DNA of 63,896 bases, filler included, from Folioceros fuciformis (Eukaryota): NCBI GenBank assembly GCA_049999805.1. It is 6 parts of 6 records of this genome, joined end to end, with 100 filler letters (N's around TTAATTAATTAA, not from the genome) between each part and the next. Parts side by side here need not be neighbours in the genome. Positions count along the whole stretch, not along the records: positions 1 to 23,689 come from JBNGIO010004075.1; 5 more parts are not named here. One strand, given 5' to 3'. Each line of letters begins with the position of its first letter. The first letter of the stretch is position 1. A program made the position numbers and the translations under genes. The notes below the pieces were generated by a model. That model saw nothing but the letters and a program-made list of their open reading frames with translations, searched no databases and was not told the origin of the DNA. This document shows positions 3,936 through 29,200 of this stretch, in pieces.

Positions 3936-3944
3936 AGTAACAGT

Positions 3945-7430: not shown

Positions 7431-8105
7431 ATGGCGGGTGCACCAGTGCCGTTGGCCTTCCTGCTTGTCCTCAGCTTGACACTGGGTGCAAAGCAGATGC
7501 GTTCACTGGCATTCAGTATGTGCGTGGCGGATTTGAGTCAACAAAGGACGGTGAACTTTGGTTATCCTTGGTATCCGTGCATGCCTGACAACAATGTCGT
7601 TCCCGCCGCTTTCAAATATGCTGACCTGAAGGATAGAAGGGACACAACAAACGCATTCAACGCTTCAGCGACATTCGGAGGCGTCGAAAACTGGCCGGGA
7701 CTGAACACGCTGGGAATGAGCATAGCGCGCCTGGATCTGGCACCGGGAGGCGTAATTCCGCCGCACACTCATCCGGAGGCCTCTGAGCTACTGTTCGTGC
7801 TGGAAGGCGTTTTGCACACTGGATTTGTGAGCTATGACAATAAGTTGTATGCTCAAACTGTGCACAAAGGGGAGGCCTTTATCTTTCCCAAGGGTTTGCT
7901 TCACTTCCAACACAACACGGGGACGGCGCATGTCTCCAGCATAAGCGTCTTGAATGCGGAGCGTCCCGGGCTTCAAATGCTGCCAACAGCTCTGTTCGCA
8001 TCTGCATTGAGCCCCGAGCTCGTGTCGAAGTCTGTTTTTATCAGTGATAAGGAGGCATTGCTCGAAGGGAAGCTGGTGCAGGAGAAGTATGCGACTTTCA
8101 TGTAA
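7431..8105 (+). CDS. GLP: Germin-like protein (cupin), secreted, intronless
   Basis: Hydrophobic signal peptide from ATG 7431, CVAD...C pair, PGLNTLGMSIARLDLAPGGVIPPHTHPEASE (germin box B) and FIFPKGLLHFQHN (box C). Confidence 0.95.
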   Translation: MAGAPVPLAFLLVLSLTLGAKQMRSLAFSMCVADLSQQRTVNFGYPWYPCMPDNNVVPAAFKYADLKDRRDTTNAFNASATFGGVENWPGLNTLGMSIARLDLAPGGVIPPHTHPEASELLFVLEGVLHTGFVSYDNKLYAQTVHKGEAFIFPKGLLHFQHNTGTAHVSSISVLNAERPGLQMLPTALFASALSPELVSKSVFISDKEALLEGKLVQEKYATFM

Positions 8106-8648: not shown

Positions 8649-11419
8649 TCAATGTCTTATACTCTCCGTCCATATACCCATGTGACCAAGCAGCAGTGAA
8701 ATGTGAGATATAAACTCTCCGTCCAGCAGAAACAGCTGAAGCCGATGTTCGGGTCTCTGAGAAACAGCAATATTGATGAGGAAGTCGGTCCATACTTCAG
8801 CTAGAAGAGCCCACCGCTTCTGACTGTCTAGGTGCTTTATCAACAAGTGTGCAAGAACCCGCCCAGCTTGCCACGGCTCCGGTCTCAGACCATCCAAATC
8901 TCCCGAGTACCTGTGTGTCACATCGTCGATGTATCTCTTGGCTTTGCTTCCTGTCAGCAACCTTTTCAGTGGGTCTGTTGAACCAAGAAGGATCCCTTGA
9001 AGCTCCGTAACTGATCGTGCATACTTATCCCTGGCCGAGTGTGACAGGAGGATGTCCGCCTTCTCCACCAGCAAGTAGAGGACGTACCTTGATATATGCC
9101 TCGCCATCTCCATGGTTTCGGCCCATGAGAATGTGACAGTTTCCTCATCAATTTGTTCCATGAACCCGGACATAATCCGCCTAAATAGACACCAGGCAGA
9201 GCACGTTTTTCCCGGTGGTGCCACAGTCTCAATCTCACACAAGCTAGTAGCTATCTCCCATGCTACCAGTGCACTGACAAGGTCTGTTGCACTTGCCCAC
9301 CTGAAAAACCTGCTATGGCTATGGTGGCTCAGAGAGTATCCAGTCACCTGAGCCAAGGAGTGTTTAATTGCTTCATCCTGCGTTCCCGGCTTGCAAAGTG
9401 AGCAGCGCTGGAGAACTCTGTCCAGGAGAAAAGCTTCAACCACGCGCACTTTCACTCCATACAGCATCAACGGCTTCTTGCTCCTTGAAATCTGTGAAAC
9501 TTGACCCATCTTGTTTGTCCTGTACCCTGTTTCAGCCTTTGCACAGTATAACGAGCTTGACAAATTGCAGAGTGACAATACTGCTAGTAGGTTCCAAGCT
9601 TTGACTGTGCAAACACCTACAAGAAGTTTGAACACATCATCAGGCAATTTGCACTTAGCCTTTTCCACACGTCCACTCAATTTCTCATGTAGTCTGTTGC
9701 TTTCTCGGATTCCAATCACGTACATGCAAGCCAACCAGACAGCTGTCCAGTCAGACTGGATCAGCCTGACGAGCTGCCACACCTGAATAAAAATCCCACA
9801 AGCAAATGAGAGACCTGTGATCAATCCTCCGTCACCCTTCCCACCAAGAGTTGATATGATAGCTGACGCTACGAGTATAATCAGGAAGGAGAGTCCTTGC
9901 AATATAACCATAATCCACTGGCTATCTGTACCGAATGATTTCTTCTGGCTGCTCTCCACCACAAAGCGAAGCTCCGCATCAAGCATTCGGATTATTAAGT
10001 CCGTGCCATCAACCCTCTGGCTCAATTCTGCAGCAAAAAACGTGTGGATCATCTGCCGCTCCTCATTAAGCATCTCAAGCCCGGTCAAGCGTCCTCTAAG
10101 CATCTTAAAAAGGGCGAAAGCTGCACATGTGTCCGCAACATTCAGTCCATTCCTCGTTTCCCGTTTCAGTAGAAGAGCGTATGGCTGTTCCAACATCTCC
10201 GAAAGCAGCACAACTCCGGTAAGGAGTTGGATCCTTCCAGAAACCCCTCCACCGCAGAAGCAGCTAGGCTGCTTCCCCAGCAAGTCATGATAAGCTTCTT
10301 GCTCCCCTTGCACAAAGAAGTTATACCTAGGGGAACGGGAATGTGCAGCCTGAGACAAACGTGATTCAAGATCCATCACCATTTGCTGTCTCAAGGCAAG
10401 GTAGTTCAAGTGAGCAGCCGCAGATTTCTTCAGAGCGATGACCCGCTCCATGCACCTGTAAGTTCCAGCCAAACCTAGCACCACTACACTCAGACAGTGG
10501 CAATCCCAACTGCGGCATACTGATTCATACATCACTTTGAAAATACTCCCAACCTGCACATCTCCCGGGCCCCAGTAGTGCATGCATGTCAGAGGTCTTT
10601 GACGCTGAGAAGCCTCAGAAATAAATGCACAACATCTGCGAGGATTCTCTGTGAACATAACTCACCTGGACTGACAGGCTGACAGCTCGTTCCCACCTAA
10701 GGTCGTCGTCTTCATAAGAGCAGTACGTGCTACTGCCGTCGGAGCCACCAAGATTGAAGAGCAGAATTGCAAGCGACACATCATCCACATGCCTCATATT
10801 CAATTCATGTGCCTCCAGAAAAGCTTGCACTGTGCATATAGCGAGCACATATTCCGCGTTAAATGCCAAGAGCCCAAGCTGTGCCGCAAAGGACTGCTGG
10901 TCATTACGGCGAGGGAAGAACCGAAGCAGCTGGAGAACCATGCACAGAAGCATCAACCCATTCAGCACCACTGCAAGAGTTCCCTTCGACAGAAGCTTGA
11001 GGTGTTCCAGCACATTGAACTCTCGTAAAAGTGGGAAGAGGAATTTCCGAAGCACCAAGGTGGATACCACAAACAACCCCTTCGCAGTGGAAACCCATGA
11101 GATTCTGCATAGAAATCCCCAGCAGTCAGAACCTGCTCAACTAACGTGAAATCCAACATTAACATTAAATCGCCCACAAGCGTATCATCCATGGAACATG
11201 GAAACGCCCACGATCCTATCATCAAATATGGGATGCCCACAATCCTGTCTTCAAATTTGCCACCTCTCTCCCCATACCTGCTAATCGACATCCTGATTGG
11301 TGCTCCAAGCCTGTCGTGAAAATCCCAGGAGGGCGTTCCCAATCCCAGAGTGGATCACGCAGCAGCATGCAGCGATGGCGGAAGGGCGTCAACCAGGAAC
11401 TGCCGCCATTGCCCTCCAT
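8649..11419 (-). CDS. DUF4220 + DUF594 family membrane protein (probably 3 exons)
   Basis: C-terminus RWALLAEVWTDFLINIAVS..EHRLQL..DGEFISHISLLLGHMGI is a DUF594 pattern. ISRYVLYLLVEKADIL and multiple TM segments fit DUF4220. A GT-AG intron at 10665-10554 joins ...SLSVQ to VGSIFK... in frame. An upstream exon from ATG 11419 also splices in frame but is less certain. Confidence 0.8.
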
Positions 11420-12039
11420 CTCGCCTTCAGGATGGAACTCGTGAAGCAGGAAACACGCGGAGAGTACTTCCGACAAGATCGGAGGCAATCTGGGACAATA
11501 CGCCTCGGAAGTTGTGACTTGTGAAGCCCGTATGCCAGCGCGTATCAGAGATTTTGCGACTGTTTCCCCAAACAACGAACATGTACATGTCCTGGCAGTT
11601 GGTGGCTCTGATGACAGCGTGCTGCAGCCTGCGACTGGTCAGTTCAGGACGCGGAGGGAAAGAGAATGTCCGGCATGAGAAAGCCACATGGCTTCCTCCT
11701 CTTTCCGCACAACGAACGGATCGGCTACCAGGCGAAGAGGATACAGCAACGGGCCACTTCATCTTTTCCAAAAACCGGTGAGGCTGATTTTATGCTTAAA
11801 GCTTTTAGTGCTTACCGTCAGGGGTCAGTCGCGGTACAGGATGGCTAGCAAAATCTGAATATGTACATGCGATGAGAGCTCAGTTCGGAGTTTGGACTGG
11901 ATGAGCCTTAGTACGGATGTCTGGAGGTGCGCTACAGGATCAGAAGAGAAGCGGGAGCTTGGCTGGCTGTTCCTCTCCAGTCACAGAGACTCCAGGTACC
12001 GATGTACGTACATTTCCCTCTCATGATGATGATCACAAG

Positions 12040-12800
12040 TGTCCACGTTCCTTGCCAGCAGACGATTGGTGGCACATCCCCATGCCCTGAATGGACACGG
12101 AAGCCAATTACGGACGGCTTGCCTCGGTTTCCGCATGCTGACGTTCAGCAGTTTGAAAGTGATGACTGATGACGTGATTTGGCGCCATATTTTTCATGGC
12201 TAGCATTCACTTCTCGGGAATCCGATGTGCACTGGCGTTCGTTGAGTGGGTCTAGCACTGTTTGTCGTTTGTTTACACTGTCCAGTTCAGGGCATTTCAC
12301 CTGTCTTCCCCAACTGGCGGCGTTACCCTCTTCCCGAATCGTCCAGTTGGAAGTAGAACCAGAGGATGACAAGGTTTTGGATTTCACAGTGACCCAGTGT
12401 GAAGAATTGCAATGAGCATGACGAGAGTTACTGTGGTGGAATGATCCAGATGTCACGACATGGTACAATGGCTCCTGGAAAAGAGACTCTCTCTGATGAG
12501 CATCCAAGCTCGAGATTGAAGGTCCATTGTGGATTCGGTTCCATGAGAGAACTGGGACACAGCACTGAACCCATCAGGTTGACAGCGTCTCTCATCGAGC
12601 TGCTGCAGTCTCGCAGTCGGTTCTGGTGTGCGACTGTGCGTCCCCACGCAGCAACTAGGCTGGTTCATGTCTTGGTGTTTGAGAAACTCGCCAGGCATGT
12701 GAGGTCCTCCAACATACAAGGGCCTGCGGAATGCTGGTTTCGAAGGTCGAGCACTGGTGCACCTTGGTGGGCTCAGGGACCAAATTTCGAGGAGAGGTAA
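12040..12800 (+). pseudogene. Probable decayed F-box gene
   Basis: From 12052: LPADDWWHIPMP*MDTEANYGRLASVSAC*RSAV, an F-box pattern LPxDxxxxI...RLxxVxxxW with TGA at the R and W positions. Later ...GHFTCLPQL...VQLEVE...FTV resembles the F-box-associated NPLTxxWxxLP region. Confidence 0.45.
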
Positions 12801-13149
12801 GGATCTTGGACATTCTGTCAGATATTTGAACGTTGTCTGCTTGCTATTTCAGCGATGGTGCCACTCTGGTCTCGTCAAAGTCTGGTGAGATATCTTGTGG
12901 CTAATTAAATGTGCTTTAAACGTAGCAAGCGACATGGAATCTGAGTAGTGTCAGATTTGGATGGTTTCCAAGGTGGAGGGTCCTGTCATCTCTCGTTTTG
13001 TGTGCTGGCTTTAGCCCTAAAGGTGGGTTCAGCTTGCGGCTGTGGCACTGTAGTTGGAGCAGCTCCTTTGCTACTGCAACTCATTTCCGCTTGTGTGGCC
13101 TCGGCATACTGCAAAGCTACAGTTGCGTGTTTGTGATTACTGCTATTCA

Positions 13150-14784
13150 ATGGCCCCTCGTTTGTGCAATCTAGCTTGGGACTCAGATGTGGAAGTGGAT
13201 GAGCGGGACTGGGATCTGCTGGCCGACCCGCCTGACGATTACGAGTGTCTGCATTGCTCTGTGCAAGCTGAAGAGCCTCACTTTGTCCTCTCGGTTCTAC
13301 AGGGCCGGCTGTCTGAACCTCTGAGCGCGAGAAGCAGCTTGGATATGGAGGCGTCTCTTTGGAGCAGCCTTCCGCAGGAGCTTCTAGAGCGAGTCCTGGC
13401 GATGCTCCCTGCGGCCTCCCGATTCCGGCTGTGTGCCGTCTGCAAGAGCTGGCGATCTCTGTTCTCCTCTCCGCGGTTCAAGCAGCTCTGTGATGTTGTC
13501 GGTCCTGTAGCTCTGGCTCCAATATGCGCTCTGGAGTACAAACCAGGGAGACTCGACCGGGGATGCCTGCCGCGGCCTTCAGATGTTTCATACCTTTGTG
13601 CGTCACGCGGACTGCCGGTGCACAGGCTGGGCCTCTCTTTCCTTCCGGAAAGGTTCCAGCGGTTTTATCCTTCTGACTGTGTGGTACAGAGTGGCTTGCT
13701 CTGCATCTTCAAAGCTGAACCGGTCGTGATGAAGCCAGGAATGGTGGAGAAGTGGACAGTTCTGGACGAAGACGTGCAGTTCAGGGAGCCTGAGGGCGGG
13801 TTTGAGGCGGTCAGGATGAGCTTATGCGTTGCCAACCCTCTTACCAGGACTTGGAGAGAGTTGCCGCCACAGTATTGTACACATGAGGAGTACGAGTACT
13901 GGAGAACGGATTACGCAATGGACCTGAAAGTGGAGAAGAGTGGAAGGCATTTCAGAGTCTTTGTCATCGGTCCCCGACTGCAGCGGGGGAAGAAGCACTT
14001 GACAGTGAACTCTTTTTCTTCGAAAGTTGGTTCCTGGGAGGTGACATATCTGTTTGATAGATATGCAACCCCTGATGAGGACGATGCAGTGGAGTGGCCC
14101 CAGTATGTGGTCTGCAAGGGGCTGCTTTACACAGCACAGGCCCAGTCTGCTGACCTCCTCGTTCACAGGCTGGAAGATGGGAAGTTTCTCCGCAGCCAAA
14201 ACTGGGACAATGCAAGGTTCCTTCTTAGCTACCGCTGGGACAACGAGGAGTTCCTTGCGCAATGTCAGGCCCGACTGAACAATGTGTTCAAGCTTTTCGG
14301 ACACGGGAGCAGAGTCCTGTGCGTGGGGAAAGTCTTGGTAGTGACACGAAGACCCAAGCTTCCGGAACACATCAAGCTTCTCCGTGAATCGTTTTCCAGA
14401 GTGGAGTTGGACTACGGTGTGTGGGAACTGGACCAGAGTAGGCTGTTATGGCACAGAGTCTCCCTTCTTCCTGAACATCTGCAGCAACTGCTGTTGGAAC
14501 CTGCTCAAATCGACCTTCACAATGAGAAGAGAAGGGGCAGGATTGAGGGTGTTAAGGAGTATAGGTTGTACTTGGATGGGGCATTCTTGATCGCCGACAC
14601 CATCTGCCTCAGTTTTGCTGTCAGTGGCAGTGGTTCCTCTGATACTGGCCCTCTGTGGAAGCATTGGGTTGCCTACAACATTCTGGAGGACTCGTGGAAG
14701 CTGCTCTGTCATGGAATGATCGCTCATATGCGCAGCAACGCCTTTCACCTCTTTCAGACCAGTTTTACTGATGTTCCTGAATAG
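13150..14784 (+). CDS. F-box protein with kelch-like/F-box-associated C-terminus, intronless
   Basis: WSSLPQELLERVLAMLPAASRFRLCAVCKSWRSLFSSPRF (F-box), SGLLCI and CVANPLTRTWRELPP. First ATG at 13150. Confidence 0.92.
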   Translation: MAPRLCNLAWDSDVEVDERDWDLLADPPDDYECLHCSVQAEEPHFVLSVLQGRLSEPLSARSSLDMEASLWSSLPQELLERVLAMLPAASRFRLCAVCKSWRSLFSSPRFKQLCDVVGPVALAPICALEYKPGRLDRGCLPRPSDVSYLCASRGLPVHRLGLSFLPERFQRFYPSDCVVQSGLLCIFKAEPVVMKPGMVEKWTVLDEDVQFREPEGGFEAVRMSLCVANPLTRTWRELPPQYCTHEEYEYWRTDYAMDLKVEKSGRHFRVFVIGPRLQRGKKHLTVNSFSSKVGSWEVTYLFDRYATPDEDDAVEWPQYVVCKGLLYTAQAQSADLLVHRLEDGKFLRSQNWDNARFLLSYRWDNEEFLAQCQARLNNVFKLFGHGSRVLCVGKVLVVTRRPKLPEHIKLLRESFSRVELDYGVWELDQSRLLWHRVSLLPEHLQQLLLEPAQIDLHNEKRRGRIEGVKEYRLYLDGAFLIADTICLSFAVSGSGSSDTGPLWKHWVAYNILEDSWKLLCHGMIAHMRSNAFHLFQTSFTDVPE

Positions 14785-15213
14785 CAGAGGACGCGGTCGG
14801 AGAGTTCCCTTCACTTAGGAATGTTGTAAGTTTACTGAGGGCCCACTACACATCTCCCACAGTGACCTGCCGATGGAGGGGCCGCGTAAAATCTCCTCTT
14901 TGCAGTCCGCATGCGTTTTTCAGGTCTCCACGCAATAGATGTTCTGTACCGTAGTACTCTGTGAAAGGAGTTGTGTTACAAAGTCCTGTAATTTTACTTT
15001 GGATATTATTTCTCAGTCGTACTGCAAATGTGGATACCCAAGGATGTGGGTATTATCCGTACATGATGAACACATAAAACGTGACCAACATTCATTTAAA
15101 ACAAATTTGTGAAATATAATATTTATATGTTTTATTAATTTGTTGAAAAAGGACGGAGATCCTCAATAAATGAGAAGTACCAATACCCTAAACTCTATGA
15201 CTATCACTTCGTA

Positions 15214-15263
15214 TGTCTTGGTTTGTCTTGGTTTGTCTTGGTTTGTCTTGGTTTGTCTTGGTG
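15214..15263. repeat. (TGTCTTGGTT)x5 minisatellite
   Basis: Directly visible 10-bp unit. Confidence 0.95.
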
Positions 15264-15917
15264 TGAAATGACAAAAGGGCTGCCTACCACTAGTGACCTA
15301 CAATATATTATTGACAAGTTGTCGGGGTGTGAAATGACAAAAGGGCTACCTATCCCTAGGATTGATGCCAATTTTCTTAGGGGAGGATGCTAGTTTTCTT
15401 CTCAGACAATACGATCATGACAATCTTTGGAATCAAAATTTGGTACTGCAATTAAACGAAGATAAGACAGAACACAGACGAAGATAAGGAGAGAGAGAGA
15501 GAGGAAAGGGAAAAGAAATAGTGAGATGGAGGCTCGAGGTCGGTGCTAATGGACTCGAACATGCGTTCGACCCAGAAAGGACAAAGGTCTGGAATTTTTT
15601 GGATTTCCCCGCAGGCTCGTAGTTATCCTTGGTGTCCAAGGTGTGGAGTTTCGTGTGTCGAGAGGGAGGGGGTGTTGCAAGGTGGGAAGAGGTAGAAAGA
15701 GGGGCGTGGGCATGGCAAGGGGTGTGAGACCGGGCCTTGAACCCATATCCAAGTTTTTTGTCTAGTCAGGGAAATGGGGGAGCTCAAAGGCAAAAGTTTC
15801 AATCTACTTTCAATGCCTCGCACCGGAGATAAGGGAGGGTGAATGAAGGAGGAATGGCAAAGAGGGACAATAGATTCAAAGTGTTTAGTGTCATACAGGA
15901 CTTAACGAGGATTTCCG

Positions 15918-16240
15918 CCTAGTGTCAGTCTACTAGCGCACTTGCACTTCAAAACTTCATTTTCAATCAAGAAAACTTCTTAAACATCCCTTCTTAACTG
16001 CAGGAGTGCGCTGATCTACCGACACACTTGCTCTTGAAAACTTCATTTTCAATGAAAAAAACTGTCTTAAACATACTCACTTAACTGCAAGAAAGCACCG
16101 GTCTACCGACGCACTCACACTTAAAAAAATTCTTTTTCAATCAAGAAAACCTTTTTAAACATACTCACATAATAGCAAGAGAGCGTCGATCTTCCGGCGC
16201 ACCCACACTTTAGGAGTGCGCCGATAGACCAGCGCATTTG
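15918..16240. repeat. ~87-bp tandem repeat with a GC-rich palindromic core (4 direct cores plus 1 inverted)
   Basis: Cores centred near 15930, 16016, 16103 and 16191, with an inverted copy at ~16225. Consensus GAGTGCGCCGGTCTACCGGCGCACTC, separated by related AT-rich spacers. Confidence 0.8.
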
Positions 16241-16547
16241 GATTGCTGGTTTTTCTATTTTTGCATTAAGGAGTTGAAGCACTAGGTAGTCTAGATAAAT
16301 AAAAATAGGTGATAAATAATCAGTGTAGACATGTCCACACACGTAACGTTTTCAAAAAATGGTAAAAAGTGGATCCAAAGCTAGGATCGTACCAACAATA
16401 GAATGAGCAAAACGGGCTTTGTGGAATCTGACCGTTTTGACCAAACCTTGTTCCTAGGTCGAAAAGAAGAAGGAAAGTGAATGGAAGTACCAAGAAAGGT
16501 AAGTGAAGGGGAGGAAACAATAGAAGGCCAAATGCATCTAGAAGCAC

Positions 16548-17192
16548 CTCATACCCGTGGATACGCTGGGGGAAGTACGCTGCACACAGCTTGTCTCCTT
16601 CAATGGCTACACAGTTGCGCGCCGACAACAATGCTACTAGCAATGTAGTCTCGCTGCCTAAACAAGCATCAACAATCCACTCTCCCTCTTTACTGAAGCT
16701 ACGAACCAACCTGTCCATCAGCTCTATTGGTCGCTAATATGGGCATACAACCCTTTTGTCATGGGAGAGGTAAACATGTTTCTTCACCACTATATCATGT
16801 GCAATGATGGACCTCCCATTGTTGAAGATTCGTTGTGGTTGCCCTGGCATCATTGATGTTCGAACTTTGCTGCTTCCCTCCTTCACACCCCATCCAACAG
16901 TGATATATTCGACCGTTTCAAACTCTCCACGGTCATTCGACATGTTCGTCTTATCCCACACAAAAGAAACGAGCCTTGCTCTCTAAGACATCTTTTGCAT
17001 GACATCCCTAACAATGTGAGCGTCCTCCACACCATGCATAACCACTAGACGGAAATCCTCATTTGTGGTCTTCTCTGCAAAACTAGCGAGCACAGTTTGC
17101 AACACTCCAACAACAAGACGCCCACCCATTGCCCCTATCTCAAACCCCTGAGGGACATCCATCACCAAGGTAGGCCTGGGTGGAGCAAGAAC
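16548..17192 (-). pseudogene. Beta-class DNA N6-adenine/N4-cytosine methyltransferase (N6_N4_Mtase) domain with two in-frame stops
   Basis: ORFs 16983-17168, 16734-16961 and 16320-16718 share one frame. It reads LVMDVPQG (motif IV, DPPYG-like) ... FVWDKTN ... ETVEYITVG ... VCPY*RPIELMDRLVRSFSKEGEWIVDACLGSETTLLVALLSARNCVAIEGD, matching HPTQKP..LxxRLI...GDxVLDPFxGSGTT..A...R...GxE. Splice acceptor TTACAG just before 17192. Confidence 0.85.
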
Positions 17193-17719
17193 CTGTAATG
17201 GTCCTCAATAACAGACGACCGGAAGGAGAGGGAAAGACCCCCCGGCGGACCCCACCCATGCCTCAACAGGAGAATTCGGGTGGCAGGTGAGAGTGAGGTA
17301 GAGGTTTTATGGGAGGATCTGCCTAACCAGCAAAGAGGGAGGAGAACCCGGGGATTTGGCGGCCGAGGAAGGAGAACGCGAAGGTCAGATAGGAGGCAGG
17401 CGCGGTGATAGGATAGGCTAGAATTCATTGCATCTTAAAATAATATTTAGTTAAGATCTGGTGAAGATGCTTTCTTGGACCTGATGTTGCTTGCAATTAA
17501 GAGCGCTAGACTGCTTAAGACTAGACTTAATGGCGGCTACGATTCCGCCCTGGATGTGTTGTACAAAGAGGTCTATTGGGTCTCGCGAATTAGAAAATGT
17601 TGGAGATAGCTTTTCCCAATAGAGATTCCCGCTCTGTCCATGGCTATATTGGAGATGTCTGTAAGGGTAGTGTGTACGTGATTCTCTTAAGGGTGGTCGA
17701 GAGCTTTTGCTCTGCAGCT

Positions 17720-17975
17720 GGTGGTGCGGGGGATAAATCAGCAAGTTCCCTGCTCAGTAGAAGGTCACCTTCTTTTATTCCCTGGAACGCTATTTGTGTT
17801 CTACGGTGAGTGGTGAGGGGGACAAATCAGCCGCCACGATGAGTGGAAGGAGAACTTCTCTTTCCCTTATCTCTTGAACGGCTCACTGTGGTCCATAGCA
17901 AAGGTGAAGGGAACGAATCCACCAGTTGCGCGGAGTGGAAGGGGAGCTTCTCCTTCCCTTATTCCCTGAACCATT
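17720..17975. repeat. ~91-92-bp degenerate tandem repeat x3 upstream of the methyltransferase
   Basis: Minus-strand units begin GTTCAGGGAATAAGGGAAGGAGAAG, GTTCAAGAGATAAGGGAAAGAGAAG and GTTCCAGGGAATAAAAGAAGGTGAC at ~17971, 17879 and 17788. Confidence 0.7.
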
Positions 17976-18567
17976 GGCTGTGTTTTGAATTTGGTGTTGA
18001 AGAGAGTCCGTGAGAAGACGAGGTGTGGAAGTGAGTGTGTGAGAAGAAGGAGATTGAAGGAGTCAGTGAAGAGAAGAGTTGAGTGAGATACGGACTGGAA
18101 GAAAGAAGACCTATCTGCCACTAACAGAAGAGGCTCGTGGAGTGACTGCTGGAGAACTGAAGAGAATTGCTAAGAATTTGCTGACTGGATGTGAACGACT
18201 GTTGAGGCTAGGGTGTGCTTTCTAGAGAATTTCTGAGGAATTCCTGGATGTTATGGGGGACTGTTGAAGCTTGTAAGGTGTTGTGAAAGATTGTTGGGGA
18301 ATCGCTGGAGATTTGTGGACGTTGCTGGGAGATTGAAGACACTTGGAGACAGACCTGTGAGGAATAAGTGTACACTAGAGTTCGGGTGTGTTTTGCATGT
18401 GGAGAGTGATGCATGGGTGTGTGAGGAAGTTCGGCTGATCCGCGGGGTCTTGTTCCCCAAGGATTAGCATTTGCATGTGTGAGGAGCATCCAATAAGACC
18501 ATATCTATAAGTCTGGAAGCTCCTAGGGCAGAAACCAATGACAACACATGCGCCGGAGAAATACTAG

Positions 18568-18590
18568 TTAGGGTTTTGGGTGGGTCCCAC
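18568..18590 (-). promoter_or_regulatory. Telo-box (AAACCCTAA) next to a TCP/site-II-like GTGGGTCCCAC motif
   Basis: TTAGGGTTTTGGGTGGGTCCCAC on the + strand. This pairing is typical of plant promoters and lies upstream of the minus-strand methyltransferase. Confidence 0.35.
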
Positions 18591-19598
18591 CACGATCGGG
18601 GGAACAGCTACTGGTCACGGGTTCCCTCGGTCGTAAAGTAGGGACCAGAGTCGTAGCGTAAGGTCAACGATAGATGGGCTACCTAGGGGTAGTGGTAGGG
18701 AGCTAATAGATAGTAGGGATGGTAGTGGATGAATTCTGACCTAGGTGAGAGATAGTAGTAGTAGAAGCTAAGAAAAATAAGGAATGCTAGAAACGTGTCA
18801 AGGCAGCTTGACATCGTGTGTGCAATAGCCAACAAGCAATAAGAAATAACAAAATAATGAATGGGATAAACGTCAATGAACATAGAGTTGTTTATATAGT
18901 TTAAACCTAATACGCCTAGGTTAACATTAATATACTTAATGTATATTTTTCATACTCCCACATAACCTAGGCAGTATTTAAGAACTGAATAAAACGTGCA
19001 TCGCGTGAAACAATGAGCATTATGCTTTTGAAAATGGAACTGGAAGCTCAAACAACAGGGTCTTCCACTCGCAAAGAGCAGTGCCAACACCATGTCTCAA
19101 CTACTTGCCGTCGTCGCGCTCGTAATAGCTGTGTTCTGTATCATCATCCAGTGGCAAGAGTCGATGACGACGAGAAGCGGAGCATGCTACCAGTCTGTAG
19201 AAGGTGAGGAGCCGAGCGCCAGACAAGGAGGCAGAAGGAAGAAGTCACGCAGAGCGGCGCAAGCCCATGGAATGGAAACCTTTCAACCTGCAGCACTATT
19301 TGAGGAGCTGCGGCTGGGAAGTGGAGCTGGCGACAAGTGTTACTGTGAGGAAGACCTTAAAGACGAATAGGCACAACTTGCCAATTGTGAAGGAAGAGAT
19401 GGTTGACCTAGAAGACATTCCTGCAGTGGACCCTCTCAGGGGCGTGAGAGTGCAATGGCGTGAAGCGGTCAACACTCCGCTACCCACCGAAGATGGGGAA
19501 GAGGAAAAGGTTCCTGCTGAAGTTGTAAAGCTGTCTCAAGAGATGTTCAAGCTTTCACAGAGAGACAAAGGGAAAAGGATGCAAGGTTAGGTAAGGAC

Positions 19599-22500
19599 TG
19601 TTGGCTTCATCCATGCTCCTTTTCCTGTGTGCCAAAAGCAGGAGGGTAATGACTGACCTATAGATTGTGTTTGTGTGTATCATAGGACACAAGTAGATAG
19701 GAAGTGTAGGAAAGTCTATCAACTGAGGCTACAATCTGTAAAACCTAAATTATAAGGGGGTTTTTAAGATCAGAGGACATAGGCCCTCACCCTCCCACAC
19801 ACTCCAGGTCAGTTGTTACCTTCCAAGTAGGTGGCTGAAGTCTTTAAGTCCAAGCGATTCCATGTGCAATCTGTGCTTCAGCTTAGGCAGCGCTTTTGTC
19901 AAGATATCGGCTGTGTTCTCAGCAGTGGGAACATATGCCAATTGGATAACTCCTCTTGCAACTGTGTCTCTGATATAGTGGTGCTTGATCTCGAAGTGTT
20001 TCGTCCTTGCATGAAATCTTGGATTGGCGACCAAGGCAATTGCAGAAATGTTGTCACAGCGGAGGATTGTGGGTTCCAGTTGCTCAACATGAAGATCCTT
20101 AAGATAAGCACGCTCCCACTCAGCCTCCTTTGCAGAATCAGTAAGAGAGATGTATTCTGCTTCAATGGAAGACAACGCAATTGACTTCTGTTTCTTGTAG
20201 GACCAGTTCACTGTAGCACCAGCTAATAGGAAGCAGTATGTGGAAAGACTCTTCCTAGAGTCAGAGTCTGAAGCCCAATCAGCGTCCGTGTATGCAGATA
20301 ATTGAAGACCTGAAGGTGACCCAACTTGATAGAAGAGTCCAATTGTCATGGTACCCTTGAGATAGCGGTAAATCCGCTTCACAGCTGCCCAATGCACACG
20401 TCCAGGCTTCTCCATGAACTGAGATACAGCACTAACTGCGTATGAGATGTCTAGCCTGGTCCAATTAGAAATGAAGATTAGGTAGCTTACTACATGCCTG
20501 TAAGGTACGTTCTCCATATCAGCAATCTCATCAGCAGATGTGGCACATTGGTCCACAGTTAACTTGACTCCCACAGAGCCTAGTGTCGAAACTAGACGTG
20601 CTTGATCAAGTTGAAACCTCTTCAGAATCTCAGCCAAGTATTTCTTTTGATGAATCACGATCAGACCTGCGTCTCTGTGACGTAGAACCTGAACACCTAG
20701 GCAGAATTTTAACTCTCCCACATCCTTCATCTCAAACTCAGTGCTAAGGAGATTTTTAACGGTGGCTAAGATGGATGTGTCTGTGCAGGCAAAGATACAA
20801 TCATCTACATAAATGGCTAAGATGCAAAAGGATGAACCATCTACAAGGTAGTATACAGAAGAGTCTGCAGCACTTTGAACAAAACCGAGCTTCTTGAGAT
20901 GAGTATCCAACCTTTTGTTCCAAAGCATGGCGCTTTGCTTTAAGCCATAGAGGGCCTTAAGGAGGTTAAGTACCTTGTTGGGCCATTGCTTGTGAAGATA
21001 ACCTTGTGGCTGCTCCATGTATATCTCCTCTTCAATTTCACCATGTAAAAATGCTGTACAAACGTCCATTCGGTGCAGTTCTAAGTTGAGCTCAGCAGCA
21101 AGAGCAAGGATAATTCTAATACTCTGAGCTCTGACTATAGGAGAAAAAGTGTCCTGGTAGTCAAGGCCAGCAACTTGACTGAATCCACGAGCACAAAGTC
21201 AAGCCTTGTAGCGGGCGATTTCACCATCAGCATTCAACTTTGTTTTAAAAACCCATTTGCAGCTAACTGGTTTCCTCCCTTCTGGCAAGTCTGTAAGTAT
21301 CCAAGTATTGTTCTTAATGATGGATTGATATTCCTCCTCTATTGCAGCTTGCCAGTGACGAGCATCAGGTCCAAAATAAGCTTCATCCATAGAGGCAGGG
21401 TCAAGATGGAGAGAAGCACTTCCAGGGACTGCTGTATGAGCTGAGGGTTTATGCCGAAAATCAAAAGACTCATAAGGTGGCTCCTGCCAGTGATCCCGAG
21501 GAATTCGGGCTCGGTAAAGTATAACGAGGAAGAGGCGCAGCCTCGATAGGTAGTAAGGCCTCCTCCTCAGAATCTACAGTAGTAACTTGGGATTCTTGAA
21601 GCGCAGGTAGGTCAGGTTGCAAGTCATTCTCTAATGGTGGGATTGGATGTGGAATTGCATCAACAGGCTCATCAATAAGATCAGGAGGGTGATCAACAGG
21701 GTCAGGAGGGTCTGGTGGATCTAGAAGTTGCACATAAGGTAGCTGATCGGGTGCAGGATCAGCAGCGTCGGGAAAGGTGGTCGGAGGAGTGGCAAATACG
21801 TCTGTTGTGGATGATTCGTCATCTGATATATCAGAAATAGAGGAAGGGTGAATGCCTACGTCTGGGGAAACTAAGGTCAACAGCTCCTTAAAGACAACAC
21901 TCCTAGCAAGAACAGGGGTAAGAGATGCAGGGTCAATCAGTTTGTATGCCTTGGCTTCATCCCCATAACCTACAAAAATCAAAGCTCGTAATCTATGATC
22001 AAGTTTCTGACGCTTCTCAGGTGGGATGTAGGCGTATGCAGGAGAACCAAATACCTTGAAGTGCATGATACTGGGCTTACGTCCCCAAAACATCTCAAAA
22101 GGCGTTTTACCTAGAAGGGAAGTTGTGAGAAGGCGGTTGAGGATGTAAGTGGCTGTGGTGAGGGCCTCTGCCCAGTACTCTACTGGAAGTGAAGCCCAAC
22201 TAAGCATGCTACGGGTCATGCCCATAAGGGTTTGATTCTTTCTTTCAGCAACCCCATTCTGTTGGGAGTGTATGCAACTGTCAGTTGTCGTAAGACACCA
22301 TGATCTTGGAGAAAGGCATCAAAGGTATTGTTGCAGAACTCTGTTCCATTGTCAGTACGTAAGCATTTAAGAAAACAGCCAGATTGTCTTTGAGCCATGA
22401 AGAACCACTCTTTAAAACAGGGAAAGGTCTCATTTTACGAGACATAGTATACGTCCATGTAAAACGACTAAAATCATCTGTTATTGTAAGGTAGTATAAA

Positions 22501-23689
22501 GCTCCTCCCAAGGATTGTGTTTGCAGTTTACCAGAGATGTCGGCATGCACTAGATCTAACAGCCCTAAAGTTCTGTAGGCATGTTGTGGAAACAGCTTCT
22601 CCTTCTGTTTGGCCAACAAACATGCTTTGCATATGGGTAAGTCCTTAAAGCAAGAAGGTAGAGGCTCAACATAGCAGTCGTGTGTCGACATCTTAATGAG
22701 TGATTTTTTATTGACATGTCCAAGGCTGGCATGCCATAACTTGGCTTGTTCGCTGGCAGGTAGATATGTTGGTGAAGTTGATGTAATTATTGGTGCTGGA
22801 GATGAAGTCTCGCAGATCACATCCAAACTATATAGCTCCGAATCGGGGACACCTCGATCAATACACTGCTCTGATGAGGTACGTCGAAAAACTTCACATG
22901 TGGTGCCATGAAAACGAAACTCCAGATTGTGATGAATCGCCAAGAGCCTGACTGACAGCAGATTTTTGGCCATGCCAGGAACAAACACTACGCCTGGCAC
23001 ATTGAGAACTGAATTGTCAGTCATAACGAATCGACAAGTACCATAGCCTTTAATAGGTAAGCTTGTTGATTGTTGTTCATCTCCAAGCAGGACAGATTGT
23101 GTGGAATCTGTAAGTTCCTTGAAGCTGCGAAATAATTGCTGATCTTTGCAAATATGTGCTGTCGCACCAGAGTCCGGAAACCAGCTACTAGGATCACTCG
23201 AAGAAGAAGACAAGCAAATGGTAAGAATCTTCACCACTGCCTTGCCATTGTCATGTTGAGGTCTTTCCTTTGCGACTGAATTGACTTCAGGCTTGGGACG
23301 ACGGGGCTCGCCTGCCTTCTTTTTGCGGCAGTCCCTCTCCCAATGTCTTGGCACATCGCACCAATTACAGTTGCCTGGTTTCTTTGTAGATGGAGTGCCA
23401 GCAGGAGAGGTTTGTGGGCGAGAAGCAGGTCGTCCGCCTCCTCTGCCCCTCCCTCTCCCAAAACCTCCACAATGACGGCAGATATAGAGAACTCGATCAG
23501 TGCGCAGCTTGCTGGAGCCGCTCGAACTAATACAAAGTCGGCTTTGCTCCTCTTGATAAAGGGCAGCAATCACGGCCTCCAAGGAATAATTACGAGGGTG
23601 ACCAGCAGCAACATTCTGGCCAGCAATGGCCAAGGGACCATGTTGTAGAGATACAAAAGTCTGATATGATGGGGGGAGCGAGAGCAAAA
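19599..23689 (-). mobile_element. Ty1/copia LTR retrotransposon (decayed; 5' end lost in gap); 3' LTR at 19599-19779
   Basis: Gag zinc knuckle (CNWCDVPRHWERDC), protease (WFPDSGATAH), integrase (LDLVHAD, TDNGTEF), RT (AIYVDD) and RNase H (YTDADWA, TADILTKAL). PPT GGGAGGGTGAGGG followed by a TG...CA 181-bp LTR. Confidence 0.95.
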
Positions 23690-23789
23690 NNNNNNNNNNN
23701 NNNNNNNNNNNNNNNNNNNNNNNNNNNNNNNNNTTAATTAATTAANNNNNNNNNNNNNNNNNNNNNNNNNNNNNNNNNNNNNNNNNNNN
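23690..23789. other. Artificial scaffold spacer N44-TTAATTAATTAA-N44 (also at 31811-31910, 38378-38477, 52822-52921, 61117-61216)
   Basis: Identical 100-bp structure five times. The 12-mer has stop codons in all six frames. Confidence 0.97.
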
Positions 23790-24129
23790 GCGTGGTCCCG
23801 ATAAGATTAGCATTGTTAGTGGTGCCGCTCTTGCTGGTGATAATAGTGCAGTTTTCCTCGCAGTCGTCCTCCACGAAGGCCTCGAATGTCACATTCACCA
23901 CCTCCCCCCCGGCATTGCAGGTGATTCCCTTGAAGACGCAACAGTTCCCGCTGCTGGTCCAGGACTCCAACTGGTTCCCATTGTCATTCAGCCCGGCCTT
24001 GAACGCTAGCAGCCCGGCCCGATCCCGCGGCACGCACAGCGGAGTGGCAGCCCAGGTCCCCGAGAAACTGAGCAGCACGAGCGCAAGCACCGTCACCAGC
24101 TGCAGTTTCTGCGTTCTGCCCGTCCCCAT
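23790..24129 (-). CDS. LRR receptor-like protein, N-terminal part (signal peptide + LRRNT_2), cut by gap
   Basis: MGTGRT...LALVLLSFSGTWA then CVPRDRAGLLAFKAGL..QLESW..GNCCVFKGITC. Close paralog of the 26251-29605 gene. Confidence 0.9.
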
Positions 24130-26250
24130 GGCTACCTGGCAGAAGGCACCCGCTCTGGCCTGCCTGCCCTTACCGGATCAGATGCGATTCAAGATACGAA
24201 TCAGTCACAGGAACGAAACGAGATGAGTGCCTGAGGGGAAAACGAAGATGGAGATGGAGATGGACGGGGGGTTTGTCAGGAGGTGTGGCGGTGGAGGAGA
24301 GGAGAGGAGAGGAGAGGAGGAAGATGGTTCATTTGAAGATCGCAGAGCGAAGCAGATAAATACCTTGCTCCGTCTCTGGCTGGCAGAAGCATGAAGGAGG
24401 AAGCTGCAGTTGTGGTGGCATCACTGGCATGTTGCCGCTTGAGTCCACCCAACGGTTGCACCTGAGTTGCGTCCTGTACCGGCTGGCGACGACCGGTTAC
24501 CCGGATCACCCTTATCCTGAATTTGGGCTAGGGCCCGGTCAAAGTCGGAGGCCGCGTGGGCCGGAGGCGGGCCATGGGCCCATTCTCTTCCACCACGAGG
24601 ACACGTGTACGCCGGACACGCTGGAGCATCCCTGGCTCCAGCACAGGTCATGAGCTCACCTGTAAGCCACCCCGACCGTACAAGTTGCGCCACCGCAACT
24701 TGTGCCCTCCTTAGTACAGTTGTCAGTCCCCCATGGCAGCAATCCTTGCACCTTCGCTCCCGAAGCGCCGCCTCTGCAATGTGCAGCACGTTTTCTCTCA
24801 AGCTTAAAAGCGGCGTAAGGAGTTTAATCGACATAGAGTAAAAACAGAGGGAAAGATACATAGTAAGGGCCCGAGAAGCTGCAGATGAGGCGACAGGAGC
24901 GAGAACTGCTCATCCCACCAGCGTCGGGGAGTTGAGCAGAGTCGACTCCGGGTGGAGCACGTTTCATGCGCCGTGCACCATATATGCTGCACACATGTGT
25001 TAATTCCTTGTGAGCGTTTTGTTCTTGCTCTTATCTTGATTCGTGTGACGATGGATCGTGTCGTGTCTTGTCGTGTTTTGTGAGTGGGACTTGTCGTCTT
25101 GCCTTCCCCGCCTAACCTGCGCTTTTCTTGTTGGTGGTGTAGTTTTATCTATCCCGCAGAGATCTGGCCAGCTACTGTACTGTGTGGCGGTGGAGTTTTA
25201 TTATCTATCCAGCAGAGGTTTGGGCCGCAGCGAGCTGTACGAATCGGGTACCCTCGTCAGCAAGCTTTTGGAGTTCCAGACGCTCCCAACCAGCTCTGCT
25301 CTGAGGCTGTGGTAGCGGGCCGCGAATGGTATTTTATCTGATCACGAGTCTTGGAAGGGCTGGGTACGAACCGACAGATGAACACAGTCCCGTTGGAACA
25401 GTACATACACGAGACCAAGGTTACGTCAACCGACCAGATGTTGGCCTGGCTCACAGGCTGGGATGCGGGATCTGCACTGTTTGTTCCTGTGTCTGGATGC
25501 AGCAAACAGCAGGCTGATGAGGGACGACGACGGGAACCTGGACCCCAACCTTCCACCACCGGGGTGGGTCATGGCTGTAGCAATGATAGGTGGTGGTGCT
25601 GGTAGCCACAAACTCGTCAGCTGCAAAAAGGAGGTCGAGAGAGCACGCCTTGGAAGGCGTGTTCTACCGACTTACTTTCCCGTACCTGGGAAAGGATAGC
25701 TACAGCGTCCAGCTATCCGTAGATGTTGGCAGTGGATGATGTAGAGCTGCAGCCCATTGCACTGATCATGCCAGGCGTAGGTGGATGAATGAATGTACGA
25801 TGTCATACAGTACTGCACCTTGATTAGGCCGGGCTTACACTAGGGTGGTCATGACCACCCTGTCAGGACCAGCAATTCCAGCAATTGACTCCAGCAATTC
25901 CTTTTGCAAAGCCATTGCTGCGGTAGATATGAATGTCCGCAGGGAAGAGAACAAATCTCCAGAGCATACAACACACTCAGAGCTAATAAAATCTTCTCTC
26001 TACGGCCATTCTACAGTGTTGCCGATTCTGTGTCCTCGCGGCTATCACTGTCCATGCTCGTCCATCACTGCAGGAATTTGGTGAGCCATCTCACGCTCCT
26101 CCCTTCCATGTAGAAGTTTTCTCGACGTTGTGGCACTGACAACCCGGTCATTGTGTAAAAACCCCACCCGTATGTGACAGATCAGTACACAAGTGCAGGT
26201 TTCCGGGAAGAGAGTTGGTAATTATTACGTGTGTGTGAATGAGGCCAGGA

Positions 26251-29200
26251 CTAGGAGCATTTGTTGGGAAGAGGGACGCCGCAGAGGCCGGAGTTGCCAG
26301 TGAAATCAGTGGCTGGGAATCTGTGGAGTTGAGAGGGAATGGGGCCTGACAACACGTTGTAGGACAGGTTCAGGGCCTGGAGGTCGGTGATTTGTGCGAT
26401 GGCGGCGGGGACAGAGCCCGAGAACTGGTTGTAAGACATGTCCAGGATGTGCAGCCCCTTGAGGTTCCCCACGGAGCGATGGATCGGCCCCGTCAACCGG
26501 TTCCACGACAGTACCAGGGCAGAGGTGGCGGAGAAGGGGTACTGGATGTCCCTTCGGAAGTCGCTGCTTTCCGGAACGTAGTAGCCCAGGGTGTAGGTAG
26601 GGGCTCCGGCAGCGTAGGATGCTGCGCTGCCTGCGACTGCCAAGCCAGTGAAGCCTGACACCATCTGCTGGAGTGGCAGATAACCTCCGAGAGCGTTGCT
26701 GCTGAGGTCCACAATTTTGATGGCGCTCAAACTGCTCAAGGACGCCGGCACGCTACCTGAAATGTTGTTGAAGCTCAAGTCCAGAACTTGAAGGCCCTGA
26801 GATGCAGTATCCGGGGTGAGGGGTTGTGAAAAGGCAAGGAGGAGGAGACGAGGGTTTCGGAGGAAATGGGTACCGTGAAGGAGGTGATGGCGGCAGGAAT
26901 CTGGCCGGACAGATGGTTCCCGCTCGCATCGTACACCAACAGCTGAGTGCAGGAAGTCAAGTCCACTCCGCTGGGAAGAACGGACCCTGAGAGCTTGTTG
27001 TTTTCCAAGACGAGAGCCTGCAGCCCGCCGCAGGCAGCACTGAAGTCGGGGATGGGTCCTGCCAGATTGTTGTTTCCCAGCTTCAGTATCTGCAAGGACG
27101 GGAAGTTCGTGAACAGAGAAGCAGGGGTAGAGCCGCCGAGCAGATTGTTGGACAGATCGATGTAGTTGAGTTCATTCCTCCTGACTGTGATTGCAGGGAT
27201 TGCCCCCGTCAGTTTGTTGTTGTTCAGAATGATGAAGTTCAGTTTTGTGGACTGGCTGTCGAAGATGTCAGGGGGGATGAGACCGCTGAGCTGGTTGTCA
27301 GCAAAGTTGAGTCCCCGTAGGACTACCTGTCCCCCGAAGCCGACTGGGATGGAGCCCGTGAATTGATTCTGGTGCAGGTCCAGGTAGTAGAGCAAAAGGA
27401 TTTGCGAAAAAGCCTGGGGAATCGTCCCTGTCAATGCATTCGCTGAGGCGTTGATGTAGGCCGCCAGCATCCGTGTGCCGTTGATTACAGGCAGCTGGGT
27501 GAGGTGGTTGTCGGATATGTCGATGGAGAGGGAGTTGTAGATCTGGAACACCCATGCAGGCACGGGACCTGCGAGAGCCGGGAACTTCATCATCACACTA
27601 CGTCTACACATCAATCCAGACATGCCCTTCCTTTAATTTTCCAAAAGCAAGAAGCCTAACAGAAAAAGAAACCGGCAAACCATGTGCCTCGTGCGCAACA
27701 ACACACCTGTAAACTGGTTGGAGTGCACATCAAAGCTCTGCACATTCAGCCCTTTGGCGCCGTCATCCGGAATGCTGCCAGTGCCCAAGCTGGTGAGCTT
27801 GTTGTGGCTGAGTGTGATGTGTGTGGCCCCCCACAGTGACGGCGGGTTCACGGCTCCCGTGAGCTGGTTGTGGGACAGGTCAAGGGAGCGGTCGCCTTCG
27901 GTGATTGCAAACCCGAGGTTTTGCGGAATGTCACCACTCAGCTTGTTTCGGGACAAGTCGAGCAGGGCCAGGTGCAGATGGGACAGCGAGCAAGGAATAA
28001 CTCCTGCATTTGAACATCCAACTTGTAAGCTTCCAGCATGTTGCAGAAGAAATTTAAAACAACTTTGACAGGCAGGTAGATGTGATACAATGTCCTTGAA
28101 TTCCAGTACCTGTGAGGAGGTTGTTTCCGGCGACGAAGGTGAGCAGGGCCTTGTCAGCACCTCCAAGAGACGCAGGAATGGGTCCGCTCAATCTGTTGTT
28201 GTCCAAGGCGAGGTTGACAAGAAGTCCGTTTGCTCCCAGAATAGCTGGAATAGGTCCAGTGAGCTGGTTGTCGCTCAACAACAGATCTGTCAGCGGCAGG
28301 CTGGCCAAAGACCTTGGAATGCTGCCGGATAAGGATGCGCCTCGGAGAACCAGAACCTGCACAAATTGAACAGGAAAAGAGCAGAAATTAATCCGGGACC
28401 CAACAATTAGGAAACTCGTAGTACGCCGCAAGCCATCAATGCTGGACAGCAGGGCTGTGCTGCTGACGTTGTCATTGCACACGATTGGTTTGTTCGAGAA
28501 GAATTTGCATATACCTGCAATTTGGTAAGTAGTCCGAGAGAGGCAGGAATGGTTCCTGCCAACGGGCTCCTTTGGAACAATCCCTGGCTGTCATAAAGCC
28601 CTCCGATCCGCAATTCCCTGAGGGAAAAAAGGTTCTTGAAGGACGCAGGGATGGAGCCGCTGAATCGGTGCCCTTCCAAGTACAGCTTCTCCAGCGACGG
28701 GAACTCCCCGGGGTTGATGAGCGGAAGAGCGCCGCTGAGTCCAGCGTTGGGCAGCGTCAANNNNNNNNNNNNNNNNNNNNNNNNNNNNNNNNNNNNNNNN
28801 NNNNNNNNNNNNNNNNNNNNNNNNNNNNNNNNNNNNNNNNNNNNNNNNNNNNNNNNNNNNTCTTGAGCTGCTTCAGCCCGTCCGGAATCCTCCCGTTGAA
28901 GGGCGCGAACTCCAAGTCCAGCACCTGGAGCTGCGTGAGCTGCGCGAAGCAGGCGGGGATGTCGCTGGCCGTGCTGCCGTCTCCTAACCCGATGCCGGAC
29001 AGGTCCAGCGTCTGCAGGTTCCTGAGCTTGCACAGGGACTGCGGCAGCGGGAGCGAGATGTATGAGCTCCCGTCGAACGACAAATACTCTAGCGACACAA
29101 TGTTCCCGATGTCGGACGAGACGGGGCCCTGGAGATCGGCTCCCAGCAGCGACAGCACCTGGAGGGTCTTGATGGCGCTCAGGCCCGTCGGGGTGACGTC

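Follow-up and report, generated by a model that had tools for sequence, protein, structure and literature searches.

The closest described counterparts of the element examined here, a decayed gene fragment related to the beta-class N6_N4 DNA amino-methyltransferases in a 63,896-nt stretch of Folioceros fuciformis DNA (the window), are N6-adenine enzymes of prokaryotes and phages, among them CcrM, M.BceJIV, M1.HpyAVI, M.RsrI and M.MboIIA. These enzymes resemble the family of the relic in permuted motif order and in fold, and they are its best sequence matches in the PDB. Two eukaryotic systems are also described. In Marchantia, DN4MT1a and DN4MT1b are writers of N4-methylcytosine (4mC) in sperm that carry a TSPPY motif and cluster with prokaryotic N4-cytosine (N4C) enzymes, and according to the accessible part of that report sperm function there requires a prokaryote-type 4mC enzyme (10.1101/2021.02.12.428880). 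In bdelloid rotifers, N4CMT is a horizontally acquired PF01555 enzyme with a C-terminal chromodomain, reported in the available portion of its description as having no eukaryotic homologues (PMC8885841). As far as its accessible text extends, a 2015 survey counts six acquisitions for this structural group and, MT-A70 aside, places none of these in land plants; it shows few eukaryotic adenine methyltransferases of the surveyed kind there, and the clade marked by Y-Q-K-P to which the relic leads is not among its listed clades (PMC4738411). A full-text literature search of main articles, including recent papers on eukaryotic DNA methylation, likewise returned no description of this clade.

DN4MT1, as described in the accessible part of its report, shares with the family of the relic the beta class of amino-methyltransferases, a prokaryotic ancestry and an occurrence in land plants (10.1101/2021.02.12.428880). 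It differs in its TSPPY motif: S-P-P-Y/F is found neither in the relic nor in any of the 33 Y-Q-K-P matches listed, a separation from DN4MT1 (Mp6g18330 and Mp6g18340) that is drawn from the motif description and not from a sequence alignment. The N4CMT structures 8s9m, 8s9n and 8s9o are fold neighbours of the family, with a weaker sequence match than the N6-adenine enzymes, and, unlike in N4CMT, no chromodomain was detected by Pfam in the relic frame or in the downstream open reading frame (ORF) at E ≤ 10. Judged by these sequence features, the family of the relic is not of the DN4MT1 or N4CMT kind.

A decayed methyltransferase gene in the window

The relic is very probably a non-functional gene fragment that belongs to a eukaryotic clade of beta-class N6_N4 enzymes found mainly in streptophytes, and within it to a sub-clade marked by the motif DLPRG. 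On the minus strand, positions 16548-17192 form a frame of 215 codons with exactly two stops, both TAG (16983-16985 and 16734-16736), and translation bears out an earlier sequence-only reading of this DNA that had described the frame in these terms. For the Pfam search the relic was translated through the stops, with X at each. From stop to stop the relic frame spans 16320-17204 (minus strand), closed upstream by a TGA at 17205-17207, beyond which there is no start codon or N-terminal region; positions 1-25 of the family profile, which hold a conserved G-D segment, are unmatched anywhere in the window. Homology to methyltransferases covers a block of about 670 bp (16530-17198, minus strand), recognized by tblastn, by PF01555 and by a family profile built without the query, and this pseudogene block has neither an internal intron nor a frameshift.

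The motifs quoted in the sequence-only reading are all present, in the permuted beta-class order that it gave, with the motif IV equivalent N-terminal to the motif I that binds S-adenosylmethionine (SAM) and with a colinear match to the family profile. All lie on the minus strand. The catalytic loop of motif IV is represented by DVPQG (17145-17159; residues 16-20 of the read-through translation), which aligns with DLPRG of the database proteins P0002, P0003 and P0004 and with DIPYG or DIPHG of other members; the D and P are kept, and at the aromatic position the relic has Q, its nearest relatives R and other members Y or H. The first TAG (16983-16985) falls at a position of low conservation in the family alignment. 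WDKTN (16944-16958) is the W-x-K-x-N motif of the clade, in which W83 never varies and K85 and N87 hardly do. CPY*RP (16728-16745, the asterisk marking the stop) is a degenerate [NSC]-P-Y-Q-K-P, with the second TAG (16734-16736) at the Q position and R in place of K. The SAM loop DACLGSET (16647-16670; residues 179-186) corresponds to D-x-x-x-G-S-G-T of the family, with E at the nearly invariant G185, and RNCVAIEGD comes last in the motif order.

Profile searches place this frame in the N6_N4 family and, far more strongly, in one clade of it. The read-through translation matches Pfam PF01555 (N6_N4_Mtase) at 41.4 bits and E 2e-10 (gathering score 26.7) over profile positions 76-212 of 221, and the last ORF piece alone reaches 35.7 bits; the sequence-only reading had proposed this very search as a check, and the match is significant. 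Against a clade-core profile built without the query the relic scores 149.5 bits (E 5e-48), far beyond the 41 bits that the general Pfam model gives. When the query is part of the profile, clade members reach 127-317 bits and no prokaryote-type row exceeds 98. Taken one by one, the three ORF pieces match the family profile in colinear succession, at positions 26-88, 92-168 and 170-227 (E 3e-9, 6e-7 and 1e-18), the next best of the 2445 six-frame window pieces standing at E 0.78. In tblastn searches of the window, all 11 family proteins used as queries match only at 16530-17198 (E 3e-12 to 2e-26), everything else lying at E ≥ 0.24, so that these searches gave no second copy of the family in the window. 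Among NCBIfam models the best match is CcrM, at 25.8 bits against a cut-off of 830, and all CcrM-type matches are far below threshold; PDB sequence matches of the relic are weak and C-terminal.

The relatives themselves emerged from an exhaustive HMMER search of 1.84 billion representative proteins, which returned 180 proteins at E ≤ 1e-3, ten at E ≤ 1e-10 and none at E ≤ 1e-30. A word-indexed protein search with the relic gave 246 candidates, none at E ≤ 1e-3, and the same type of search with the family alignment gave just 11 proteins. The best HMMER matches (P0002-P0009) are 29-34% identical to the relic, mostly over nearly the whole query. The top eight are eukaryote-type, while prokaryote-type matches begin at E 3e-11 and cover the C-terminal third only.

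A maximum-likelihood tree of 27 rows (supports given as ultrafast bootstrap/Shimodaira–Hasegawa-like approximate likelihood ratio test) places the relic in a clade with P0002, P0003 and P0004 at 95/97, and a 97/94 split divides the family side from six prokaryote-type rows. Two proteins guessed beforehand to be prokaryotic, P0116 and P0058, fall on the family side; the former is from a sea star. The relic has a terminal branch of 1.45 changes per column against 0.26-0.63 for P0002, P0003 and P0004, as expected for a sequence freed from selection. PF01555, motif alignment and family profile thus agree on the permuted beta-class N6_N4 amino-methyltransferase relic that the sequence-only reading had proposed. 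Its further view that the relic is eukaryotic and not a contaminant finds support in the streptophyte nearest relatives, a GC content like that of the flanks, and plant repeats on the flanks.

A eukaryotic clade marked by Y-Q-K-P

The relic is an ordinary pseudogene fragment, and the uncharacterized family to which it points is the interesting part. Motifs that line up between the relatives and the relic are D-[ILV]-P-x-G, W-R-x-V-V-x-H-S, V-W-x-K-x-N, [NSC]-P-Y-Q-K-P, F-S-x-E-G-D-W-V-L-D-x-x-x-G-S-G-T and R-N-x-V-A-V-D. Y-Q-K-P occurs in 33 of the 150 matches listed. Prokaryote-type matches have a motif IV of D-P-P-Y or D-L-P-Y-G and in many cases resemble the family in the latter; they differ by H-P-T-Q-K-P, by forming a supported separate branch, and by lacking both the eukaryote-style acidic tail and the N-terminal region of the Y-Q-K-P clade.

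Organism names were available for 10 of the 30 clusters looked up: five from Chara braunii, two from Adiantum nelumboides, and one each from Ginkgo biloba, Riccia sorocarpa and Patiria miniata. None of these ten is from an angiosperm, and the remaining 20 clusters are run-assembly and metagenome records. Clade members include Ginkgo Gb_37443; Chara GBG86584.1, GBG75370.1, GBG66685.1, GBG89295.1 and GBG77312.1; Adiantum MCO5553878.1, MCO5614432.1 and MCO5579754.1; and Riccia KAL3685543.1. Their database annotation is automatic only (“DNA methylase N-4/N-6 domain-containing” or “hypothetical protein”). The named streptophyte proteins are 25-34% identical to the relic over the domain and share its motif order and W-x-K-x-N, along with Y-Q-K-P and D-x-x-x-G-S-G-T, which the relic has in altered form; in the tree they and the remaining relatives constitute the family side. 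Unlike the relic they have open frames, and several have an acidic tail and, at the N-terminus, a conserved region of about 250 residues; such low-complexity acidic tails give the family proteins a eukaryotic look. Their motif IV is mostly D-[IV]-P-Y/H-G, whereas the nearest relatives of the relic, P0002, P0003 and P0004, have DLPRG.

Every protein of the nearest group in which motif IV is covered (P0002, P0003, P0004 and P0156) has DLPRG, with DIPYG, DIPHG and DVPYG elsewhere in the clade. This group, in which P0002 and P0003 are 49% and 37% identical to P0004, retains Y-Q-K-P and G-S-G.

A metagenome scan yielded 80 loci, the best of them from one assembly set and consisting of Ginkgo-like genes with interrupted reading frames. 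These genes encode an N-terminal region of about 490 residues and, in the methyltransferase exons that follow, DIPYG, NPYQKP and a tail of acidic residues. The conserved N-terminal region (1569-3035 of the plant-like metagenome locus L006, residues ~100-520 of the 789-residue P0021, and ~130-370 of P0005, which is Gb_37443) is 36-40% identical among these sequences and has no significant match in Pfam, NCBIfam or PDB sequences; Pfam gave sub-threshold, unrelated families only, such as DUF6551 (E 0.019, 14.9 bits, cut-off 26.8). In the AlphaFold model of P0021, residues 240-320 and 395-520 of this region are confident helices, and 100-235 have a predicted local distance difference test score (pLDDT) below 50. 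A ParB/Srx-like domain, as in ParB-methyltransferase fusions of phages and plasmids, was suspected here by eye and rejected: it found no ParB-family match in Pfam, NCBIfam or the PDB and no support in the AlphaFold model. Within the window the relic has no counterpart of the region seen in P0005, P0021 and L006. P0002-P0004, which were not searched for it, have much shorter N-termini, so the N-terminal region may not define the sub-clade.

The sea star protein P0116 (XP_038062583.1, Patiria miniata) has 222 residues and is annotated as “DNA methylase N-4/N-6 domain-containing”. It sits on a long branch, and its place on the streptophyte-family side hints at a clade extending beyond plants.

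Decay and inherited traits

Damage specific to the relic consists of the two TAGs, the R in place of the nearly invariant K of Y-Q-K-P, and the E in place of the nearly invariant second G of G-S-G. Both ends are also missing, the N-terminal one as described above, and at the C-terminus the conserved “LPxExQE[IV]G” tail, which is absent after ...RIHGYE. The sequence-only reading had called the copy dead and had singled out GSE as a deviation from GSG; both statements stand, the latter change being specific to the relic. Judged from these lesions, the relic would make no protein and methylate nothing.

The consensus motif IV of beta-class amino-methyltransferases is (D/N/S)-P-P-(Y/F/W). DVPQG departs from it in that the first P is replaced and no aromatic residue is present. 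The earlier reading had taken DVPQ in place of DPPY as a sign of decay as well, a view that the family alignment corrects: D-[ILV]-P-x-G is clade-wide, D-[ILV]-P also occurs in some prokaryote matches, and the nearest relatives have DLPRG, leaving just the Q private to the relic. Since DLPRG is found in all four nearest proteins that cover the region, the lack of an aromatic residue in motif IV is conserved across the sub-clade.

Recoding of TAG as glutamine, which would keep the relic frame open, is rejected: TAG is an ordinary stop in the window, where the F-box ORF and one further ORF terminate with it, and both ends of the relic would still be missing.

Flanking repeats and other copies

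DNA contigs from three sequencing runs under the same organism label (X1-X3) were aligned to positions 13000-20500, and depth was taken as summed contig depth; all aligned records are short contigs, none spanning the stretch. Depth over the methyltransferase block is ~14-28, near the 10-15 of the F-box gene, and rises to 298 in the bin 17267-17517. At 17172-17177 the homology meets, with its 5′ end, the edge of a high-copy repeat: contigs from other copies of the upstream repeat cease to match at 17172 and 17177 (three contigs each in X1), and the family-profile match starts at residue 13, nucleotide 17168, about 5 nt from that edge. Upstream in gene orientation, a mosaic of high-copy repeats with a depth of 100-400 in several bins (17267-19023) reaches from the relic to a Ty1/copia element. 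The downstream side is also repeated DNA (15761-16513, depth 54-65 in X1) and includes, just beyond the relic, three tandem units of 86-88 nt that are 66-80% identical (15950-16210; direct repeat family D1).

Given the repeat ends at 17172/17177 and the start of homology at 17168, the missing 5′ part of the gene is most simply explained as replaced by repeated DNA. The 5′ end would have been cut by an insertion of repeated DNA next to the copia element, and the remaining fragment would then have decayed by point mutation. No long terminal repeat (LTR) pair for the neighbouring copia element was found within 12000-26000, so the element that owns the repeat edge at 17172-17177 cannot be named.

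The same contigs reveal further copies. One X1 contig covers 16789-17201 with no differences, including the first TAG. A second contig, seen in X1 and X2, has seven differences within 16706-16755; its G at 16736 turns the second TAG into CAG, but its A at 16733 makes the next codon TGA. In X3, a 257-nt contig is about 92% identical. The organism holds at least two to three diverged copies, and the two that are readable at the second stop are both broken, by different C-to-T changes. The block is not marked as foreign by composition or surroundings: its GC content is 0.48, against 0.42 and 0.476 in the flanks, and its CpG observed/expected ratio is 0.58, against 0.59 in the F-box gene.

Alternative origins

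The alternative that survives best, though still unlikely, is that the relic was cargo of a decayed transposable element of which the flanking repeats are parts, a scenario compatible with a dead copy and close to the transposon-borne family suggested by the sequence-only reading. The family is multi-copy wherever it is visible, with the two to three or more diverged copies in F. fuciformis, five clusters at <50% identity in Chara, two clusters in Adiantum and several paralogues in one metagenome assembly set. Repeats lie on both flanks of the relic, the Adiantum gene model P0164 starts with a stretch that is integrase-like by eye only, and the sea star member lies far outside plants. The readable relatives, however, do not look like cargo. 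The longest related loci have no transposase, integrase or terminal repeat beside the gene, and paralogues at 68-78% DNA identity to L006 align over essentially the gene body only (L006 1515-4703; gene 1569-4647), similarity beyond it being one stretch of 133-149 nt in two of the nine loci compared with L006. Such gene-body-only similarity fits old gene duplicates better than recent transposition. In F. fuciformis the block stands near single-copy depth, against ~20-65 in the downstream flank and up to ~400 upstream, a contrast indicating that the flanks and the methyltransferase block do not move as one unit. On this sequence evidence the family may, with low probability, be carried by transposons, and truncation of the gene by inserted repeats is preferred for the relic.

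It is very improbable that the relic is instead a live exon of a multi-exon plant gene, its stops being assembly errors, alleles, or codons bypassed by editing or read-through. In favour of such an exon, the pieces follow one another colinearly in a single frame with no frameshifts, an AG is present at 17193-17194, and another copy has CAG at the second stop position. That copy, however, continues with TGA; the first TAG is reproduced by X1 contigs with no differences; TAG is a normal stop in the window; conserved residues are lost; and the terminal branch exceeds those of the clade mates by a factor of 2-5. Neither an upstream nor a downstream exon was found in the window, the search upstream having been made by tblastn at E ≤ 10 and by an unfiltered hidden Markov model (HMM) search listing matches to E 50. 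The splice acceptor that the sequence-only reading had placed before the domain also fails on geometry: the AG lies inside the repeat edge, and in multi-exon relatives the exon with motif IV starts at least 40 codons upstream of that motif, compared with 11 for the proposed acceptor.

A remnant of an endogenized giant virus is slightly less probable still. Chloroviruses encode many amino-methyltransferases, and giant-virus relics are reported in non-seed plants. Near the relic, by contrast, there is no viral hallmark gene, its neighbours being the F-box gene, repeats and the copia element; no clade member was found in IMG/VR, and relatives from other plants have interrupted, intron-like gene structures.

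Bacterial or phage DNA, whether contaminating, chimerically joined or transferred very recently, hardly merits consideration even though PF01555 is mainly a prokaryotic and phage family and CcrM is the best NCBIfam match (at 25.8 against 830 bits), because the eight best matches are eukaryote-type and prokaryote-type ones reach the C-terminal third only, the tree split from prokaryote-type rows is supported, the GC content is that of the flanks, the relic is bordered by plant repeats at either end and DNA contigs cover the whole stretch, and in the IMG/VR scan the one confirmed stretch among ten candidates was an unrelated 59-residue match of prokaryote-virus type.

Likely chemistry of intact members

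AlphaFold models P0021 with a pLDDT above 90 over most of its methyltransferase domain (526-770). In a Foldseek comparison the closest folds (E 2e-12 to 1e-9) are those of CcrM, M.BceJIV, M1.HpyAVI and RsrI, all N6-adenine enzymes, with the rotifer N4C enzyme and PvuII next. Against PDB sequences, the family profile matches CcrM at E 6.8e-8, N4CMT at 5.5e-4 and PvuII at 0.11. A serine in the strand-4 motif has been tied to N4C activity, as stated in the accessible part of the 2015 survey (PMC4738411). The aspartate in the motif IV of the clade, together with nearest structures that are all N6-adenine enzymes, favours N6-methyladenine (6mA) as the product. The sequence-only reading had held that the target base could not be read; from the intact relatives a guess can be made, and it points weakly to 6mA.

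In such enzymes the aromatic residue of motif IV stacks on the flipped base. The DLPRG group keeps the SAM loop and is missing this base-stacking residue, and is on that account read as probably non-catalytic or re-purposed. By its motifs, the DLPRG sub-clade is probably a non-catalytic paralogue or one of altered specificity.

Several points weigh against the interpretation of the relic and its clade given above. The contigs of runs X1-X3 come from one sample, possibly the source of the assembly itself, and so give no independent proof of the stops. The repeat end at 17172-17177 is read from short contigs and not from a spanning long read. The search for copies of the relic covered the window, an intact copy elsewhere and the copy total being beyond its scope. 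That intact D-I-P-Y/H-G relatives methylate adenine N6 in DNA is probable only in a weak sense, as predicted from motif rules and nearest structures, and the N6_N4 domain has repeatedly switched between 6mA and 4mC specificity, according to the accessible part of the N4CMT study (PMC8885841).

Significance

The relic itself changes nothing in the biology of the plant; its value is as a pointer to an amino-methyltransferase clade that extends from stoneworts to Ginkgo. The named plant holders, Chara, Riccia, Adiantum and Ginkgo, belong to lineages with swimming sperm. A joint reading can be ventured, though as a whole it is unlikely, and somewhat less probable than transposon carriage of the relic. 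It holds that the clade is an undescribed, anciently held eukaryotic family with its own signature (D-[ILV]-P-Y/H-G ... Y-Q-K-P), a conserved N-terminal region unmatched in the domain libraries searched and a derived DLPRG branch, possibly of pseudoenzyme partners, whose intact members would write 6mA or 4mC in male gametogenesis, in parallel to DN4MT1, and which would have been lost in flowering plants. Following the Marchantia 4mC result, as presented in the accessible part of its report, a second and wider prokaryote-type family in non-flowering plants is a candidate for DNA methylation other than 5-methylcytosine.

Other features of the window

The germin and F-box genes that the sequence-only reading had placed alongside the relic were both recovered by domain searches, as a germin-type cupin gene (Cupin_1, 7386-8105) and the neighbouring F-box gene (13054-14784, plus strand). 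A possible RNA run, X4, contributed one 1760-nt contig that matches 13245-15004 with no differences and is the sole X4 coverage of 13000-20500. Given this contig, the F-box gene may be transcribed; X4 coverage is limited to that gene and is uninformative either way on expression of the relic.

Ty1/copia-type elements or fragments lie at 19816-23741, 33297-37332 and 62381-63895 (minus strand), with long ORFs resembling gag, integrase, reverse transcriptase and RNaseH, several of them containing stops or runs of N. The RVT_2 domain at 19816-21198 (minus strand) is the only domain-tested part of this annotation, the rest being taken from the ORF list. A cluster of leucine-rich repeat (LRR) receptor-like ORFs (23734-29803, minus strand) is split by N runs that represent assembly gaps, and LRR Pfam matches were obtained for the ORF at 26775-27632. 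A 670-residue ORF at 8649-10661 (minus strand) combines DUF4220 and DUF594, a pair known in plant genes of unknown function. Finally, two single-exon kinase-like ORFs were identified at 46938-48173 and 50616-52457 (minus strand); the former is 40-49% identical to the best named L-type lectin receptor kinases of land plants (angiosperms, mosses and liverworts) and 66% identical to one run-assembly protein.

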